Below the pieces are notes generated by a model, which saw nothing but the letters and a program-made list of their open reading frames with translations, had not been told where the DNA came from and did no database searches. Source: a virus. Taken from it: a DNA stretch of 21,215 nt. Positions 1 to 16,974 of the stretch are shown one piece after another (position 1 is the first letter of the stretch; the number at the start of each line of letters is the position of its first letter). The stretch lies in the UHGV virus genome UHGV-1726252; one strand, 5' to 3'. Position numbers and translations under genes: made by a program.

Positions 1-51
1 ACCGTCATGGGGTGTCGGGGGTCGGAGGTTCAAATCCTCTCGTGCCGACCA
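1..51 (+). tRNA. 3' portion of a tRNA-Pro gene (anticodon GGG); the 5' part lies upstream of the window
   Basis: T-arm GGAGG-TTCAAAT-CCTCT, acceptor 3' strand CGTGCCG, discriminator A and encoded CCA at 49-51. Anticodon loop ATGGGGT (7-13) gives U33 and anticodon GGG. The T-arm and acceptor match the enterobacterial tRNA-Pro (proL-type) sequence as I recall it. Confidence 0.75.
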
Positions 52-63
52 AAAACTCCTTTA

Positions 64-92
64 AGAACCAGCCTTTATGGCTGGTTTTTTTA
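64..92 (+). terminator. Intrinsic terminator downstream of the tRNA
   Basis: Inverted repeat AACCAGCC / GGCTGGTT with a short loop, followed by TTTTTTTAT, starting about 15 nt after the CCA end. Confidence 0.6.
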
Positions 93-138
93 TGCCTGTT
101 TTCTGAACGGGGAAGCAACGGGGAATAATCGGGGAAAA

Positions 139-160
139 ACCCCGACACAAAACATCGACT
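139..160 (-). terminator. Possible weak terminator hairpin for the umuD'-like gene
   Basis: On the minus strand, TCGGGG-TTTTT-CCCCGA followed by ATTATTCC, about 25 nt after the stop at 182-184. The U-tract is imperfect. Confidence 0.3.
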
Positions 161-181: not shown

Positions 182-571
182 TCACATCACCGGGCAGTCA
201 TCAAACTCCGCGTTCCTGGCATCATTAATGATGTACGTGATCACCCCGAATATAGCGGGTGCAGAACTGTAACCGTCATCATCTACTGGCAACGCCTCCC
301 TTCTCCCGTTCTCCAGATTAACCAGGTGGGGTTGAGGATGAGTCCGATATCGCTTGATCCTGAATTCCCCGTCTATCGCACATATCAGCAGCGAGCCATC
401 ACAGGCTGAAAGTGAGGCATCAACAACAAGCAGCGCCCCCTGAATTATCCCTTCCCTGAAATGTGAACGCGATGCACGCATGAAATAAGTCGCTGCGGGC
501 TGGCTGATTAACTGCTGATCGAGGGAGATTCGTGTTTCAACATAATCTGCAGCAGGTGAAGGAAAGCCCAT
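182..571 (-). CDS. umuD: UmuD'-like protein (S24 LexA/UmuD family) that begins at the position of the UmuD post-cleavage N-terminus; no umuC partner
   Basis: The product from the ATG at 571 starts MGFPSPAADYVE and aligns end to end with UmuD/MucA-type proteins from the conserved GFPSPAADYVE motif onward. AAGGAG sits 6 nt upstream of this ATG. The Lys of the Ser/Lys dyad is retained (EFRIKR) but the GDSM motif is degenerate (ASRSHF). The track ORF extends 6 codons further to a GTG at 589, which lies inside the LexA box. Confidence 0.8.
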   Translation of the reverse strand: MGFPSPAADYVETRISLDQQLISQPAATYFMRASRSHFREGIIQGALLVVDASLSACDGSLLICAIDGEFRIKRYRTHPQPHLVNLENGRREALPVDDDGYSSAPAIFGVITYIINDARNAEFDDCPVM

Positions 572-586
572 GATCTGCACTCCTTT

Positions 587-606
587 CACTGTTTTTATAT
601 ACAGTA
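587..606 (-). promoter_or_regulatory. LexA (SOS) box overlapping the promoter of the umuD'-like gene
   Basis: Minus strand reads TACTGTATATAAAAACAGTG, a canonical CTGT-N8-ACAG palindrome, about 15 nt upstream of the SD/ATG. A TTGATC -35-like hexamer lies 17 nt upstream of the TACTGT half-site. From memory it is nearly identical to the E. coli umuDC operator. Confidence 0.8.
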
Positions 607-663
607 GTTTTAAAGGGGTTGCAGATCAATGAGGCGACACCTATCAATCTACGCCACCGGGGG

Positions 664-3027
664 TTATTTGAATTTACGAATCAACAACTGAGTGATCCGC
701 ACCGTCCTGGCAATGTTTCTCGTTGCGTAAACTCCGCCAATAATCCCACCGCCGCAGAACTTCCCCTTCGTCCAGTCTCCCGTATAGTTCAGGACAGGGG
801 TGTCGATAGTCTCCCACCCGTCGTAGACCTTAACGGTCTGAGTTGTAGGCGAGGTTTTTTCGCAGCGGATGAGGAACTTTCTTGCCCTATCGGTGGGACT
901 ATAAACATCGTCTATCCCGGCCTGGATCTGAGGATAGGGAGCGGAACCCTGGTATGGATAGCGCAGCTGTAGCAGGTTAAATGTTTTCGACGTGGCATAC
1001 AAAAGCAGGCAATTATCCTCCTGATAATTATCTGCAGCTCCCGAGTTTCGGTTGAGGGACTTCCCGCCAAAGAAAAGAAAACCCGTATCCGTGTCGAAGA
1101 AGCCCTCAACCAGGATTTCAACTTTGTCACCTACCTGTCCAATATCAGCGCAGTTTGTGCCGTCAAACATCTCAGGATTCATGAACGCCACGCGGTTATT
1201 TGTGGCATCCGCCTCGAAGCGGAAATCGAGAGGCCCGGTTTTCTCCAGCGCATTCACCTGAATATAATTTGGCGCGCCGTAGTTGTTCACGTAGCCAAAG
1301 GTGTCCCTGGCCTTCCAGAACGGATTGAACTCAAACCAGCCGCCCCAGAATGCCCCGAGAACTGTCGCCGATGGCGCGATCACCTGGATACGGTTAAGCC
1401 CGTATTTCAACTTGGTAAGATAGAATGGACGGTCTGTCGCGTTGATGGCTGCTTCGTTCTCTCCGGTGTCCGGAAGCTCTTTATCGTAATAGGCGGAAGA
1501 GTTACCGAGTGAAAAGACCCTCACGCGCGGCAGCTGGTCGGCTGCATATGTAGATCCAATATTGCTGTTGCCAAAATTGCGGTATATCAGGGAATCCTGA
1601 TTACCCTCGCTCCACACGAAGAAGTCAAAGATAACCTCGCTCGCCACATAGTCTGCGGCCTGGATGTACCAGATCCGCGGGAACCGCGAGTATTTATATC
1701 CCTCCGACCCCGTATCAGGAACCCAGCTGGAATTGTAGTCCTTCGAATATCGCATCCGGCTGTCCATCCAGCAGATACGCTCAATATCAGTACCGTAGCA
1801 GCGAAGAATGTCAGGCATAAACGACTGAGCGACAAAGGACGCTTTCATCGCATGGCCAACGTCCCCCCAGTGCAGGCCGTCAGGCTGGAGTTCATACTGG
1901 TTGGAGTAATCGCTGTTTTTGGACATCCATGTTTTTTGCATGAAGTCCTGATCGATAATGGACACCCCCAGCACCTCCGCCATGTATTTTTTCGCGGCAT
2001 CGATCTGGGCTGCAGCTTCTTCATTGTCACGCCCGGAAGTACCAGAGTTCCAGCCGTTGTAGGAGCGCCAGTTTGCATCGCAGGTCGTTAGTACGGGTGT
2101 GGCGCCGGCTGCGATAACCTTCTTCATGACCTCGATTGTTTGCGCGATATGCTCGGTGATTTTATTTCCTGCGTCTGTAATATCGTTCAGCCCGAAGCTG
2201 ATGATCACGATATCCGGGTTAGAAGGAATATAGGGGTTTTGCAGGACGATTTTATCAAAGTAATAATTTACCCAGCCGTTCTGCATTTGCTGGCCGGAAT
2301 ACCCGGCGTTATAAACGCTAATGTTGTTGTTACGATGGTACTGCCGAAGGATTGTCTGCAGTCTGGCACACCATGCATTGGGCGCTTCTGCGTTATGGTC
2401 ACTGTTGGCCAGAGGTGCAGTGGCCCACGGGAAGCCAGTTACAGGCGTGGTGGGGTTTGCCGTCCACCCCGTGGAGCCATTACCATCACCGGTCGAATCG
2501 GCTATGCTGGTAATAATAACCGTCTCTCCGGCATGCATTTTTGCTGCCCAGTAATCCAGGGTTTTAATATGTCCCTGAAATAATGGTGCCGCAGCACTGA
2601 GAATTAACTGCCGAAGAGAGGCATCGCCTACGGAGACAAAATGGGAAGAGTCAGTTGTATCCCACGAAGTTTTTGTTGTCCCGGCTGTTTTATAAGGTGG
2701 TTTGGTACCAGCAGACAGCTTATAGAATTCACCGTCATAACGAATCAGCTCATTGTATTCAGAGACAGTAATTATGCCGTCTTCATAATCTCCAATTACG
2801 TCATAGCCCGCATTTTCAATAAAGGTGCGAAATCGCGTTTCCTGATCAGCTATCTGATTATTGAAGTCATATTCCATTCCACTCCACGATTTACGTATCC
2901 GACCCAGCCTGTCGGTCCATGTTTTGTTGGTAATTCCATTTACCGCCTGATCCAGGTTCTGAGCGTTATCACGTAAATCGCGTGGGTCAGTTGAACCCGG
3001 CGGGTTAAGAGTGTTGTATGGTGCCAT
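664..3027 (-). CDS. Tailspike / side tail fibre protein with a central SGNH (GDSL-like) esterase domain, a probable receptor-modifying (deacetylase-type) enzyme
   Basis: 787 aa from the ATG at 3027, which has GGAG 10 nt upstream. All four SGNH blocks are present in order: SIADSTGDG (Ser block), YNAGYSGQ (Gly block), ISFGLNDI (GxND), DGLHWGDVGH (DxxH). The N-terminal ~130 aa resembles conserved fibre attachment domains. The track ORF extends 15 codons upstream across a terminator and is not taken as real. Confidence 0.8.
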   Translation of the reverse strand: MAPYNTLNPPGSTDPRDLRDNAQNLDQAVNGITNKTWTDRLGRIRKSWSGMEYDFNNQIADQETRFRTFIENAGYDVIGDYEDGIITVSEYNELIRYDGEFYKLSAGTKPPYKTAGTTKTSWDTTDSSHFVSVGDASLRQLILSAAAPLFQGHIKTLDYWAAKMHAGETVIITSIADSTGDGNGSTGWTANPTTPVTGFPWATAPLANSDHNAEAPNAWCARLQTILRQYHRNNNISVYNAGYSGQQMQNGWVNYYFDKIVLQNPYIPSNPDIVIISFGLNDITDAGNKITEHIAQTIEVMKKVIAAGATPVLTTCDANWRSYNGWNSGTSGRDNEEAAAQIDAAKKYMAEVLGVSIIDQDFMQKTWMSKNSDYSNQYELQPDGLHWGDVGHAMKASFVAQSFMPDILRCYGTDIERICWMDSRMRYSKDYNSSWVPDTGSEGYKYSRFPRIWYIQAADYVASEVIFDFFVWSEGNQDSLIYRNFGNSNIGSTYAADQLPRVRVFSLGNSSAYYDKELPDTGENEAAINATDRPFYLTKLKYGLNRIQVIAPSATVLGAFWGGWFEFNPFWKARDTFGYVNNYGAPNYIQVNALEKTGPLDFRFEADATNNRVAFMNPEMFDGTNCADIGQVGDKVEILVEGFFDTDTGFLFFGGKSLNRNSGAADNYQEDNCLLLYATSKTFNLLQLRYPYQGSAPYPQIQAGIDDVYSPTDRARKFLIRCEKTSPTTQTVKVYDGWETIDTPVLNYTGDWTKGKFCGGGIIGGVYATRNIARTVRITQLLIRKFK

Positions 3028-3043
3028 TGTATTTCTCCAGCAT

Positions 3044-3066
3044 AAAAAAACCCGCCGGAGCGGGTT
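3044..3066 (-). terminator. Intrinsic terminator between the J-like gene and the tailspike gene
   Basis: Minus strand ACCCGC-TCCG-GCGGGT followed by TTTTTTT, ending about 15 nt before the tailspike SD. Confidence 0.75.
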
Positions 3067-3084
3067 ATGCAATTAAGGGTGTTT

Positions 3085-6000
3085 TCAGGAGACATCGCCG
3101 GGGTAGCTGGCGTCATCGTACTTATATTTATCGGGATGGTACTGAATGGCTGAAATACTGCTGGTCCCATCACCTCCGGGAGAAATCTCGCCAACCAGCG
3201 CGTCATACCCGACACGGGATGACGAACAGAACAGCAGGCGAGGCGGCTCAATGTACGGACTGTCCATCGCCCATTCTTCCGGTGCCAGCGCGGCGCTGTA
3301 TGGAATACGCAGGGTGTAATCATCGATGCGCGTCGGAACCTGCAGCGGCGACGCCCGGCCGTCCTGGTGGCGGATCACCACCCGCGGATTTGGAAAACTC
3401 CAGTCCGGCGGTTCGCTGACTGTCAGGGTGATCGCAGTGCTGTCCCATTCCATGTCAGTTATCAGGCAGCTCAGCGTCTGGTTGCCGGGAATGTCGTCAG
3501 TGAGGATGATCCGGTCCATAAACTGGTAGCACAGCGCATCCATTTCAGTGCTGGTCGTATGCTGCAGGCGCTGCAGCTGGTAGCCGCGCAAACGGCGCAT
3601 GCCAATGCGGTACGCCCGGTCCTGATCCACAACCCCCTCCAGTTTGTAATCTTCCACCTTCACTGGCGTAGAGTTTCCGGGCTGACGGCACTGTACGGTT
3701 TCTTCTGCCCAGGTCGTGCCGTTGATATACGTCACATCCACGCCGTCATAATCGTCCTGGCTCGGAGCCTTGAAGGCCGTCTGCAGCTCTTCAGTCGTCT
3801 CCTGGGGAGTGATCATCCCGGTCCAGTTTTTCACTCCTTCTCTCCCGGCGGAAACCAGTCCATCTGACAGAAGGAAGTATCCCATCCCTGCGCCGGTAAT
3901 GATTTTCAATACCTCGAGCGCAGACTTGCTGTCCCCGGTGGCCCAGTCGAACGTTTCCCCGCGGGGGGTCCACCAGGTCTGTTCGAGCGCGTCAATCGCT
4001 GCGCGGTCAATCTGTTCAGGGCGGAAACCCAGAGATTCCAGGACATGGTACAGCGCCCCGCTGATGCTGCGTGAAGGGTGTCCGTTATATAGCCGTGTGG
4101 GAATGACGTTAACGCGGCGATCGGACTGGGCCGCCAGTCGGTTACCGGTTCGTACCGTCAGCGCAAGAGTGGTCACGCCTGCATAGCTCCCCGGGCGTTT
4201 GCTCAACCGCGAGCGCATCGCCTGCCAGTAAAGGTTGTTCACCGTCCTGGCACCGCCAATTTTCGTCGTACGCCGCACGCGGACCTCATACTGTGCGGCC
4301 GGCAGCCCGCTGATGCGCCGGGTATAACCGTGGCCATCTGCGGTTTTGTTGGTGAAGTTATACACCACCTGCGACCAGGCTCCCGAAGTGGCTGCATTAC
4401 GGTACTGAACCAGCACCCGCACAGTATGCGACTGCGGATCCCCGTTCTTTTTGTACTGGATGTGGCCGTTGGGGAAAATGAAGTTATTTTCGATGGCCGT
4501 GGTTGTTTCTCCGTCCGGGCAGGCAAGGAAGGGGCCGAGCCAGGCATAATCATCATTCACGCCGGTGACCTGGGCATCGAGCAGCGTACGCTCGGTGAAC
4601 CCTGGCCATGCCGGATCCACGGTGACGACATCATTACCACTGGTGTCCTGGGTGACGACCACCCGCTCAACCGTGATGGTCTGATCATCAATATCGGTAA
4701 TGCGGAACTGGCCGTCGGCGTAGCCGATACCGATCCGCTGAACGCCATCAGGGATACCGGTGAAAGGCTTGCCTGTGGCATTGTCATACGCCAGCGTGAT
4801 ATTTGCCTCAACCGCCGCGGTACCGCCCGTCGAGGCCACCCCGGTAACATCTACCGTAGCGCTGCCGAATACGGAGACCGGAAGAGCGCTGTGACTGATG
4901 GCCCCCCCGGCAAACGGGCTGCTTTCCTCGGCAATCTGCAGCCGGCCACCAGTATCGCGCGCGATCAGGCCGGAACCGGTGAGCTGGTTTGATATGGTAT
5001 TAACCAGTCCGGACATCGTGACGTAACTGGTAATGAGTGAGATAGCATACGTCGTGCCTTTCCAGCCGATCGTGAACGTAACCGGCGTTGCCGTGAAATC
5101 GTACGTGGTGGGCGCGGCGCTGGCGGTAATGCTCGCTGTCGAACCACCCACCCCGGGCACCGCCGGAACGCCTGCTGCGTAACTGGCGATATACAGATCA
5201 TAAGCCGACTCATTAAACGTCACCGAGACAGGCATGCCTGCAGCTGGCCGTAGCTCAGCAACATCACCATAAATCACGCTGTACCCGCCGGCATTGGCAA
5301 CCCGGTAGGAGTTTGGTGCTACTACCGTGATTACTGTGCCAACAACCCAGGCCGCCGGGATCTCCGTTTCACCGTCGCTGGCCGTGGCCGCAATCAGGGA
5401 AAGAGTGTTACCGCTCACCAGAATGGCATCAGAGATGATACTGACCGTCTGCGGGCCGGTTGAGCCGAGGTCGAGGCCTGCGGTACCCGAAGTGGTATTC
5501 CCCACCTCGCCGCTGTTGAACCAGTTCTCGGAACGACTATCGGCCGCAACGCTGGCACCCGGTGGATAGATGGTGGCGCTGACATCACTGCCGAACGCGG
5601 ATGCTGGCGTGGAGCCAATGCGTATCGCCGACGCGGGCAGTGCCATGTCGCCCACCCCCACGCATAAAAACATGCTGGTCACGTATTTTTTGGGATCGGC
5701 GGAATCGAAGCGCGAAACCGGCTGGACGACGTAATCCGGCCACACCTTATAGCGACCAAATATCTCCCGGATGGGATCGCCCAGTTTTGCCATATTGGCC
5801 TTTGCAGGGTTGAGCTCGAGTTGATCCCCGTTGCCGGGCTGGCTGGCGCCGCCGGTCTGCATGGTGCTCATCATGTAGATGGAGTAGGCGGCAGAGGCGA
5901 CGGCTATTGCCACTGCCGTCCAGACCAGCCAGGCTGGCGCCGCCGGGCCAAACGGAACGGGATACAGGCGTACATCATCATCCGGTGCGATAATCTGCGC

Positions 6001-13514: not shown

Positions 13515-15461
13515 TTACTTACCGGATGATTTCGCCAGGCCGCGATAATCCAGCGGCGCCACACCAGCATCGATGCGGACTTTCGTCGCAACACCATCAG
13601 TGGTGAAACCTTCCTGCTGGTCGATGTACGGGGCATCAATGCCATTGAGGTACGCCACTTCGATGGTATCGGTGCCCTGTGCGGCAGCCAGATACCAGGC
13701 CGCCGGGTCGGCGTCATCCAGACGCGCTTCTGCGATCACTTCGGCAAAGTTCTGCAGCGGGTTCACCACGCCGGCATTGATATCAGCCCCTTTCACGCTT
13801 GCTGACTTAATGGTCTGGCTGGCTAATGTTTCCAGACCCACCGGAACCAGCATGTAGGCCGGACGAATGTTCAGGGCGCGCTCGCCCTCTTTCTGCTTGC
13901 GCATGTTCTGGCGGGCCTTATCCAGGCTGTCAACGCTGATGGCGCCAGCTGAAAGGTTGGCATGGTCAGCATGGAAGAGCGCCTTGCCATCTGAAAGTTT
14001 CCCGTTACCGGTCAGCACGGCGTAGACCAGGTCACCGATAGTGGCTTTTGCAGCGCGGCCCATCTTCATCGGAACGTCAGTCAGCTGGTTCAGGTCATCG
14101 TTGATAATGGCCTGGCGGGTGATGGAGAAGATCTCACCGTAAGTAGCCAGCGCGATGGTTTCACCCTTATCCTGCGTGGTGATGTACTTATACTCCGCGC
14201 CCTCTCGCACCTGACGCAGGGACGGGAAGCCCCCCATGCCGACGCGATGCGCCGTTTTGAAGTCAGAGAGCTGGCCTTTTTTGGTCCAGAGTTCAAAGGT
14301 CTCTGCCGCTTCATCCCAGCCCTGCAACAGCGCTTTGTTGGCGACATCGAGCAGGATATTGCCAAAATCGGAGGTGCTGTGCGTCAGCGCAAAACCGACC
14401 ATCTGCATCGGGTTGTAACTGGAGACCCCGATGCCGCGCTCGGTCAAGGACATGCGGGCGTATTCGCGCAGCGTCATACCGTTATAGACGTTGTCACGCT
14501 CAACATTTTCATAACCGGCACGCGCCATCAGCGCCTGGCGGATCCCGTCGCCAACAAAGTTACCGTTCCCGGCATACACATGGGCCTGCCCCTGCGTAGT
14601 GGTGTTGGACGGCGTGGCATTTTTACCGAGCTCTGCCAGAAGAACATCTTTCGCCTGGCTGACCGAGCACTCTGGATCGGCAATACATTTAGCCTGCAGC
14701 TCCTGATGCTTTCCGCCGAACATGGCGAAGAGATCCTGAATACCGTTCACGCGTGCCTTTTGCTCCGCAATAACCTGCGCACGGATATCAGTTTCGCTGG
14801 CACCTGCCGCCGGAGCCGGCTGGGTGACAGTTGGCTGCTGTGTTTCGCGCGTAGCGGTATTGCGCGGCGGGGTGACCATGTTGCGAATGCTGTTTGGCAT
14901 CTTTTCAAATTCCTCAATACGTTTCGAATGGATGCAGGCCATTGCCTGCAAGGATGGTGTGACCTGGTCAGCGAAGCCCAGCTCCAGACATTCAGTGCTG
15001 GAGAGCCAGGTCTCTTCCTCCAGCATTGCCGCAATTTCTTCGGTGCTTTTTCCCGTCTTCTGCGCGTATGCCGGGATCAACACCGACTCCATTTTGTCGA
15101 GCAGGTCGGCGTAGTCGCGCATGTCATCAGCATCACCACCCGCAAAACCCCACGGCTTGTGGATCATCATCATGGTGTTTTCCGGCATGATGACCGGGTT
15201 TCCTACCATGGCGATGACTGATGCCATTGAGGCAGCCAGACCGTCGATATAAACGGTGATCGCCGCGCCGTGGAATTTCAGGGCATTAAAAATGGCGATA
15301 CCGTCAAAGACATCGCCACCAGGGGAGTTGATATGCAGTTTGATGTGGGTGACATCGCCCAGCGCCTTAAGGTTTGCGACGAACTGCTTCGCCGTTACCC
15401 CCCAGTAGCCGATCTCGTCGTAGATGTAGATTTCGGCTTCGTTTTCCGAACTGGCCTGCAT
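13515..15461 (-). CDS. Fused prohead protease (ClpP/S49-like) and major capsid protein (HK97-fold type)
   Basis: Single ORF. N-terminal ~200 aa carry a ClpP/S49-like serine protease signature (EIYIYDEIGYWG, HINSPGGDVFDG, GLAASMASVI, MIHKPW). A Pro/Ala/Gln-rich linker follows, then a ~330-aa capsid-like C-terminal region. Start uncertain: ATG at 15461 (11 nt after the portal stop, chosen here) or ATG at 15545 (overlapping the portal 3' end). The track extension to 15806 is rejected. Confidence 0.85.
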   Translation of the reverse strand: MQASSENEAEIYIYDEIGYWGVTAKQFVANLKALGDVTHIKLHINSPGGDVFDGIAIFNALKFHGAAITVYIDGLAASMASVIAMVGNPVIMPENTMMMIHKPWGFAGGDADDMRDYADLLDKMESVLIPAYAQKTGKSTEEIAAMLEEETWLSSTECLELGFADQVTPSLQAMACIHSKRIEEFEKMPNSIRNMVTPPRNTATRETQQPTVTQPAPAAGASETDIRAQVIAEQKARVNGIQDLFAMFGGKHQELQAKCIADPECSVSQAKDVLLAELGKNATPSNTTTQGQAHVYAGNGNFVGDGIRQALMARAGYENVERDNVYNGMTLREYARMSLTERGIGVSSYNPMQMVGFALTHSTSDFGNILLDVANKALLQGWDEAAETFELWTKKGQLSDFKTAHRVGMGGFPSLRQVREGAEYKYITTQDKGETIALATYGEIFSITRQAIINDDLNQLTDVPMKMGRAAKATIGDLVYAVLTGNGKLSDGKALFHADHANLSAGAISVDSLDKARQNMRKQKEGERALNIRPAYMLVPVGLETLASQTIKSASVKGADINAGVVNPLQNFAEVIAEARLDDADPAAWYLAAAQGTDTIEVAYLNGIDAPYIDQQEGFTTDGVATKVRIDAGVAPLDYRGLAKSSGK

Positions 15462-15471
15462 ACGGAACCAG

Positions 15472-16974
15472 CTATTTTTTGCCTGGGCTTTCGGGCGGTT
15501 CTTTACCCGGTTTTGCTTCCTGGACACGAGTGTCTCCTTTGTCATTTGCCGGGTCGGTATCAAACACCAGCCCCTGTTTACGGTTCTCGTCAACCTCCGC
15601 CTTACGGCGGCGCTTAACATCATCAGGATTTGCGCCGCGGGCGCGCACCCATTCACTCTCTGTCGCAGCACCGCCACGCAGCAGAATTTTCCAGGCGTTC
15701 GCCTCTTTGACCGGGTCAATCCAGGGCATAACGGGCCCGGAGAACACGGCGCTAAAGAGCGTGGCTTTATCGACATTTTTCGGGACCGTGATCTCGCCTG
15801 AAGCAATCGCCATCCTGAGCCAGGCCCGGTACATAGGTCGTGTGATCGCCGCGATGAATGCGTCCTGAAGAATGAAATAGCCTTCGGTTGACTCCACCAG
15901 CTCCTGGCGCTGCGCGCTGTATGTTCCGTCGTAGTTACGGGCGATACTTGAAAAGCTACCGCGCGAACCAGCGGCTACAGCACGTAGCTGGCTATTACGG
16001 AAAGTTTCGAGGTTGGGATTTGGTCGGTCTGACTTGATCATGCCGATGTCTTCACCCGGGCGGAGATCGTCAAACAGCATGCCGGGCTCGATGTTTAGCT
16101 CCCTTTGACCGCTGCTGCCTTCGTCATAAGTCTGGCCATCACCTTTTTTAATGAACATGCCCAGTGCCGCAGCAATGCGGGCAGCGGTCAGTTCGGCGTC
16201 CTCGTACTCCTTCAGCGCCGAAAGACGCATCAGCACCCCGGCAAGCAGTGAGTTACCCCGGATTTGATGCAGGCGGCGCATGAACTTCAGGTGAAGCATA
16301 TTCTCCGCCTGAATATCCTTGGTATCTCCCTGGCGCATGCCTTCCGCCGGAAGGTTTTTGTAGACCATGTATCGGGTCGGGCGGCCCCAGTCATTCAGGT
16401 AAATGCCCTGGCATAACTTCTGACCCGGCTCTGTCCGCTCCATCGGCACAAAATCCGGTTCCAGAGCCTCAATCCAGAAAGGAATGTCTGCCACCGGCGA
16501 CAGACCGTTCCCGGTGCCACTGACCAGCTGCGCGAACACCTCGCCGTCACGTAACCAGGTCCGGCACATCAGGCGCTCAAGCACTGGTCGGGTAAACTGC
16601 CCGGTAACATCGGGAGAAACGGACCACTCCGCCCATTTGGCGCGGATCTGTGTAGCAAGGTCAGTAGCGATGCCCCCGTTACTCATCAGGGGCTGCGGCT
16701 CCACGATGATGCCTTTTGCCCCCACAATGCGCTCTTCGAGTTTATCAAGGAGGCCGATCACCAGATCGTGGTTACAGTCAAGCCACCGGGCTTGTTCGCG
16801 CAGCGATCGCCCGCCGAATTGCGTCAACTGATTCGCGGAGCGGTTTTCGCGTTTTGCCCGGTGCGTCCGGGTAGGAATGACAGCCTCATATGCCTGGATC
16901 ATCAGGCGCGACTTCAGGCGCTCCGCTTTCCAGCCCGGGGAAAACATGCCTATCAGATTATCCAGGGCGCTCAT
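15472..16974 (-). CDS. Portal protein (lambda gpB family)
   Basis: 500 aa, located between W and the protease/capsid gene. ATGA overlap with the W stop. Basic/acidic C-terminal tail. Confidence 0.9.
   Translation of the reverse strand: MSALDNLIGMFSPGWKAERLKSRLMIQAYEAVIPTRTHRAKRENRSANQLTQFGGRSLREQARWLDCNHDLVIGLLDKLEERIVGAKGIIVEPQPLMSNGGIATDLATQIRAKWAEWSVSPDVTGQFTRPVLERLMCRTWLRDGEVFAQLVSGTGNGLSPVADIPFWIEALEPDFVPMERTEPGQKLCQGIYLNDWGRPTRYMVYKNLPAEGMRQGDTKDIQAENMLHLKFMRRLHQIRGNSLLAGVLMRLSALKEYEDAELTAARIAAALGMFIKKGDGQTYDEGSSGQRELNIEPGMLFDDLRPGEDIGMIKSDRPNPNLETFRNSQLRAVAAGSRGSFSSIARNYDGTYSAQRQELVESTEGYFILQDAFIAAITRPMYRAWLRMAIASGEITVPKNVDKATLFSAVFSGPVMPWIDPVKEANAWKILLRGGAATESEWVRARGANPDDVKRRRKAEVDENRKQGLVFDTDPANDKGDTRVQEAKPGKEPPESPGKK

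Follow-up and report, generated by a model that had tools for sequence, protein, structure and literature searches.

Why would a temperate phage carry a gene for UmuD′, the form that UmuD takes after RecA-stimulated self-cleavage, with no umuC beside it? The question dates from 1999, and it is raised again by a short gene at one end of UHGV virus genome UHGV-1726252, whose 21,215 nucleotides (hereafter the window) we analyzed computationally. The gene, humD, lies at positions 182–571 on the minus strand (ATG at 569–571, TGA at 182–184) and encodes a natively UmuD′-sized protein of 129 aa. A first-pass annotation made from the raw sequence alone had read it as an orphan, truncated umuD′ under an umuDC-type SOS operator, and this reading was accurate. 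Judged by its sequence, the gene is an ordinary member of the HumD family and of a kind already known: it was described in 1999, has a curated NCBIfam equivalog of its own, and is annotated in near-identical Citrobacter prophages.

The window gene starts where UmuD′ starts. Its product begins M-GFPSPAADYVE, and alignment to the structures of UmuD (PDB 8gmt_B) and UmuD′ (1umu_A) begins at UmuD Gly25, with residue 2 of the window protein opposite Gly25 of the former and residue 1 of the latter, and Met1-Gly2 opposite UmuD Cys24-Gly25. A Shine-Dalgarno sequence, AAGGAG, can be read directly at 580–585 on the minus strand, 8 nt 5′ of the ATG. The sole in-frame start farther 5′ is a GTG at 589, out to which the mechanical ORF list runs the frame. 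This GTG sits within the LexA box described below, and since in-frame stops precede it and it would add only 6 residues (MKGVQI), a UmuD-type N-terminal arm is not encodable here. The earlier proposals that the gene begins at GFPSPAADYVE behind a good Shine-Dalgarno sequence, and that it encodes a native UmuD′ form with neither arm nor cleavage site, therefore stand; an upstream in-frame start encoding an arm was sought and none was found. The same start recurs among relatives, where 98/120 proteins among the matches listed in a cluster search begin at the humD Met and most are 129 aa long. Some database versions run to 148–223 aa with extensions unlike the UmuD arm; these are start-codon miscalls, produced by read-through of the LexA-box region or by fusion to an upstream ORF.

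Profile comparisons place the protein in the HumD family rather than among UmuD proteins. It scores 224.2 bits against the NCBIfam equivalog NF051876, "HumD family translesion DNA polymerase" (cutoff 120), with residues 1–129 matching model positions 1–129 of 129, whereas the UmuD subfamily model PRK10276 (NF007621) gives 92.2 bits, under its cutoff of 110. The protein also matches Peptidase_S24 in Pfam (PF00717) and PHROG 811, "UmuD-like protein" (E = 5e-51). Among phage records searched with tblastn, full-length identity is 72% to HumD of P1, P7, and SJ46 and 66–69% to the proteins of HK140, HK639, phiKO2 (gp23), and N15 (gp26), all labelled UmuD-like. A large protein collection holds 505 relatives, of which the nearest (96–98% identical) come from Citrobacter freundii, C. 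portucalensis, and C. braakii and bear the name "HumD family translesion DNA polymerase"; a 100% identical protein is encoded on an IMG/VR contig. HumD was first described from phage P1 as an “already activated” UmuD′ homolog (McLenigan et al. 1999, J Bacteriol 181:7005, via PMC7092418). As presented in PMC7092418, citing that work, P1 HumD is UmuD′-sized, comes without a umuC partner, and complements UmuD′ functionally; the GenBank record of P1 likewise marks a LexA site for lxr/humD and notes that the product "functionally complements E. coli UmuD′". This family had gone unrecognized in the first-pass annotation, so that its interpretation of the gene survives but is not new, in view of NF051876, the identity to P1 HumD, the P1 record, and PMC7092418.

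HumD proteins differ from UmuD at the protease motif. The alignment comprised 101 HumD-family sequences, 12 true UmuD proteins (encoded on chromosomes or plasmids, or distant representatives with adjacent umuC), and the C-terminal domains of LexA and lambda cI. The N-terminal arm, the Cys/Ala-Gly site, G-[D/N/E]-S-M, and V-K are present in 12/12 UmuD references, and every one of the 101 aligned HumD proteins starts with Met-Gly. Where UmuD has G58-D59-S60-M61, HumD has (by L-INS-i and HMMER) a variable residue, then Ser (75), Thr (25), or Ala (1), then His (94) or Tyr (7), and finally Phe (75), Tyr (25), or Leu (1); the window protein reads R-S-H-F at this motif (ASRSHF). Gly58 is retained in no member and Lys97 in 99/101. 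Because gap placement differs between alignments, it is ambiguous whether S36 or H37 stands in the Ser60 register: HMMER and L-INS-i (118 sequences) do not put S36 at the Ser60 position, and a five-sequence MAFFT alignment brings the HumD Ser under Ser60 through a shifted one-residue gap. The G and D of GDSM are absent under every alignment, and a quarter of members have Thr instead of Ser. The degeneracy noticed in the window protein is thus a family-wide trait that extends to P1 HumD. The family also shares a C-terminal extension, (IN)DARxxEFDDCPV (residues 117–129, window 182–220), that is nearly invariant and has no UmuD counterpart. An AlphaFold2 model based on a 55-sequence family alignment (all rows at least 70% identical) was of unusable quality, with a mean pLDDT of 44 and a pTM of 0.35.

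The upstream region of humD resembles that of umuDC. Using a LexA pattern with 16 specified bases, and with chance expectation taken from shuffles, we found a single site in the 21 kb (0.02 expected by chance). This putative LexA (SOS) box, TACTGTATATAAAAACAGTG as written on the minus strand, lies at 587–606, has 1 mismatch to the pattern, and agrees with the umuDC box of E. coli K-12 at 19/20 positions. Two further blocks, ATTGATCTGC and ACTACTGTATATAAAAACAGT, also occur upstream of E. coli K-12 umuDC, identical in sequence and equal in spacing; the former contains the hexamer TTGATC and stands at the same distance from the box as in umuDC. From this likeness we infer a weak sigma-70 promoter at 601–629 on the minus strand, with a −35-like TTGATC (624–629), a 17-nt spacer, and a −10-like TACTGT (601–606) that overlaps the LexA box; a generic promoter scan of positions 1–760 called no promoter. 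The near-consensus site, unique in the window, and the umuDC-type spacing of ATTGATCTGC agree with the earlier claims that the humD promoter carries a LexA box and that this operator is of the umuDC type.

Predicted LexA control is a property of the family. Counting as strong any box that matches at 14/20 positions or more within 450 nt upstream, we found one at 77/80 IMG/VR viral loci, and within 80 nt at 54/80; the background rate is 0.003 boxes in 450 nt. Twelve genome and phage loci follow the same pattern (LexA box, no umuC), and in the P1 record the LexA site stands 39 nt upstream of humD.

UmuC is consistently missing from the vicinity of humD. A tblastn search found no UmuC anywhere in the window, consistent with the first report that none follows the gene. 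Among relatives, a distance of 4 kb takes in umuC at 0/80 viral loci, and one of about 6 kb takes it in at no close relative from genomes or phages. Other partners are frequent: dinI lies near humD in 41/80 viral loci and in most genome loci. Upstream of the gene, relatives have either a divergently oriented dinI that shares the LexA boxes or, between a LexA box and humD, a 79-aa ORF. The window cassette has no dinI, 79-aa ORF, SRAP, or umuC, and no dinI remnant was found when one was sought at 607–663; the window thus holds a modular SOS cassette in its minimal form.

The layout of the window also has a junction at the humD start codon. Similarity of all close relatives to the window ends at position 572, and the start codon is a mosaic junction (window 572–663). 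Direct fusion of promoter to ATG, as seen in the window, is common to only 2/80 viral loci. The promoter, LexA box, and Shine-Dalgarno module recurs in a P22-like E. coli prophage (L025 3001–3110; 102/110 aligned bases identical), where it adjoins a homologous tailspike and drives a 79-aa ORF (MPRKSDIH start) and an S24-like gene; similarity stops after the ATG.

Two observations concern the cassette in relatives. The 79-aa ORF is conserved between the LexA box and humD in many relatives (for example L007 5759–5995, L005 2762–3001, L010, and L001), with a count of 25/80 among the viral loci; it appears to be translationally coupled to humD, and a Pfam search of it returned nothing significant. 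At the proL locus of E. coli 100181 (L027 3475–6500), we found an SRAP/YedK-like peptidase, a full-length umuD with a Y-family polymerase, and dinI, so that the att-proximal SOS cassette exists in a "complete Pol V" and a "HumD only" version.

We consider it probable (roughly 0.8) that the prophage uses humD to make a UmuD homolog directly in the shortened UmuD′ form, under SOS induction, which joins a UmuC-type polymerase. In the lysogen, host LexA bound to the box that overlaps the promoter would keep humD off. DNA damage would inactivate LexA, a signal shared with prophage induction, and HumD would then be made. Needing no RecA-stimulated self-cleavage, HumD would bypass the delay that restrains Pol V, and its dimer would associate with RecA filaments and with a UmuC-type polymerase supplied by the host or a plasmid, allowing translesion synthesis and damage tolerance. 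P1 HumD reportedly dimerizes and, in vitro, binds to UmuC and to RecA filaments. It is also said to be poorly expressed, with high copy number needed for full complementation, so that it may not be an efficient Pol V activator in nature. By analogy with P1 HumD, at 72% identity, the window protein would be expected to share its dimerization, its binding to UmuC and RecA filaments, and its complementation of UmuD′.

The main rival, which we regard as unlikely, is that the principal role of HumD is that of a modulator or decoy and not activation of Pol V. Binding to RecA filaments or heterodimerization with host UmuD would then adjust the co-protease activity of RecA, recombination, or the turnover of UmuD and, through these, the timing of prophage induction. 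The company that humD keeps is consistent with this, since the LexA-controlled cassette so often includes dinI, a RecA-filament binder, and never umuC; the near-invariant INDARxxEFDDCPV tail and the conserved His at the former active site are likewise unexplained by a UmuD′ role. However, P1 HumD is annotated and cited as complementing UmuD′, and the family strongly conserves the GFPSPAADYVE segment and the greater part of the core. The absence of dinI from the window also means that the gene evidently works alone.

It is still less probable, in our estimation, that the family has a distinct activity altogether and is not merely a UmuD′ that needs no cutting. HumD might, for example, regulate RecA filaments or the stability of host UmuD/UmuC so as to set induction timing, with mutagenesis a side effect seen on overexpression only. 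This idea draws on the loss of the Ser motif with Lys97 kept, the acidic, Cys-containing tail, the proximity of dinI, the occurrence of SRAP near the same att site in relatives, and the lack of umuC. The reading that we prefer remains that of a UmuD′ supplied ready-made to a UmuC-type polymerase.

Evidence of selection bears on whether the gene functions at all. Broken humD copies exist among relatives: one has multiple stops (L014 6001–6390), two are frameshifted (L001 4160–4665, and L002 in E. coli AH01), and that of phage Eeyore is a 92-aa truncation (L026 3652–3930). Such copies, together with the full umuDC-like operon that E. coli 100181 carries at the same place beside proL, might suggest that the window gene is a functionless, decaying remnant of a umuDC operon that has lost its 5′ end and umuC. 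We think this very improbable, because the window humD is intact and covers the NF051876 model end to end, shares its start with most of the listed matches, and has its own Shine-Dalgarno sequence and predicted LexA-controlled promoter. Values of dN/dS between the window gene and intact close relatives are 0.03–0.08, pointing to strong purifying selection. Identity to enteric UmuD is only about 40%, which argues against a recent deletion derivative; we rejected recent deletion from host umuD for this distance together with the HumD-specific features. The humD gene is dispensable in some prophages although intact copies are under strong purifying selection.

The relationship to UmuD rather than to repressors is also evident from phylogeny. 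In a neighbor-joining tree (200 bootstraps, capped distances), HumD forms a clade in 200/200 replicates, and HumD and UmuD together stand apart from LexA and cI in 152/200. HumD nests within UmuD, and 136/200 replicates join it to the enteric UmuD proteins. The protein thus groups with UmuD, as the first-pass annotation supposed, and not with LexA or lambda cI, to whose C-terminal domains it is 24% and 17% identical, respectively. That it is instead the C-terminal (S24) domain of a phage repressor or anti-repressor-type regulator, as the S24 fold family shared with LexA and cI (PF00717) and the wrong label "LexA family transcriptional regulator" on many database entries for relatives might suggest, is hardly credible given the absence of a DNA-binding domain, the best PDB matches (UmuD′ 1umu at E = 3e-23 and UmuD 8gmt_B, versus LexA at E = 1e-4), the 33 bits obtained with the LexA model TIGR00498 (NCBIfam) against a cutoff of 111, and the position of LexA and cI outside the clade.

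The surroundings of humD are those of a prophage end. The window comprises the late arm of a lambdoid siphovirus, with small and large terminase, portal, protease/major-head, and tail genes, a tape measure, a TipJ-like tail protein, and a tailspike, and humD is the last gene before a tRNA at the end of the tail genes. Positions 1–51 (plus strand) are identical to E. coli proL and correspond to the 3′ part (positions 27–77) of tRNA-Pro(GGG), found as a partial Rfam match cut at its 5′ end; ARAGORN called no tRNA in the window, which begins inside the tRNA gene. The near-identical locus L035 continues 22 nt further, into the 5′ part of the tRNA, indicating that an intact tRNA abuts the humD end. 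The gap from the humD stop to the tRNA is 130 nt, matching the distance and the terminal location originally proposed. A hairpin with a T-run at 63–92 (plus strand; 11-bp stem followed by TTTTTTT, −16.5 kcal/mol) is assigned from RNAfold as the tRNA terminator, while a consensus terminator scan of positions 1–760 called none.

This tRNA-adjacent segment corresponds to an attachment region. Window positions 6–147 show 84–86% identity to attP-region sequence from phages that target proL (Phi06_2987, Eeyore, Flotzy, and the Gifsy-2 end). In Eeyore the matching segment lies between int and the truncated humD-like gene, and the identity begins within the anticodon loop (window position 6); together these identify 6–147 as the att region. 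In HK140, humD overlaps the putative attP. The locus is therefore probably a lambdoid prophage of Citrobacter that carries humD as an SOS "moron" (accessory gene) beside its attachment site.

Several other features of the window and its relatives deserve mention. In E. coli AH01 (L002), a prophage region near the icd/e14 site has two tRNA-Pro-derived att segments (2824–2946 and 4001–4139), 1.1 kb apart, that adjoin SRAP and the frameshifted humD; the duplicate segments suggest that the att fragment moves together with the cassette. The window tailspike/tail-fibre protein (802 aa, 664–3072, minus strand) contains an internal SGNH/GDSL hydrolase domain at residues about 190–410, suggesting a deacetylase or esterase receptor-destroying activity, and unrelated P22-like prophages of E. 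coli have tailspikes about 80% identical to it at the DNA level. A long ORF at 13515–15806 (minus strand) matches both head-maturation protease and major-head families, a protease/capsid fusion type known from certain lambdoid phages. The TTG listed as its start overlaps the portal gene, and translation therefore probably begins at a more internal codon.

By itself, the locus adds little beyond a further lambdoid prophage with a putatively SOS-induced humD, and it is no better suited than P1 or HK140 to testing why temperate phages carry a pre-activated UmuD′. Its local peculiarities, a umuDC-like promoter fused at the ATG and a stripped-down cassette without dinI and the small ORF, are minor. 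What the family survey provides is a tidier definition of HumD: the protein begins at the Gly25 position, its gene follows a LexA box and lacks umuC, GDSM is lost with Lys97 kept, and the C-terminal tail is conserved.

Set against known systems, the window gene closely matches HumD of P1 and P7. These too are 129 aa long with an M-GFPSPAADYVE start, have a LexA box 35–39 nt ahead of the ATG, lack a umuC partner, and share the altered active-site motif (AADSHH in P1, ASRSHF in the window), the Lys97 equivalent, and the INDARxxEFDDCPV tail. Unlike the window, an integrated lambdoid siphovirus at tRNA-Pro, P1 is a plasmid prophage with humD between lxr and phd-doc, and the promoter module of the window is unlike that of P1 and closer to umuDC. 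HK140 gp28, HK639, N15 gp26, phiKO2 gp23, and the HumD proteins of Citrobacter and E. coli prophages belong to the same family (66–98% identity) and are likewise predicted to be LexA-controlled. HK140 and Eeyore resemble the window in carrying humD at the tail-fibre end beside attP. Most relatives carry dinI in divergent orientation, the 79-aa ORF ahead of humD in one operon, or both, whereas the window has neither. UmuD, MucA, and plasmid UmuD proteins share a homologous core (about 36–44% identity), the UmuD′ N-terminus, and the Lys97 equivalent with the window protein, and E. coli umuDC has nearly the same LexA box and −35 block. In contrast to UmuD, the window HumD lacks the 24-residue arm, the Cys/Ala-Gly cleavage site, and G-[DNE]-S-M, has no umuC downstream, and bears about 10 extra C-terminal residues.
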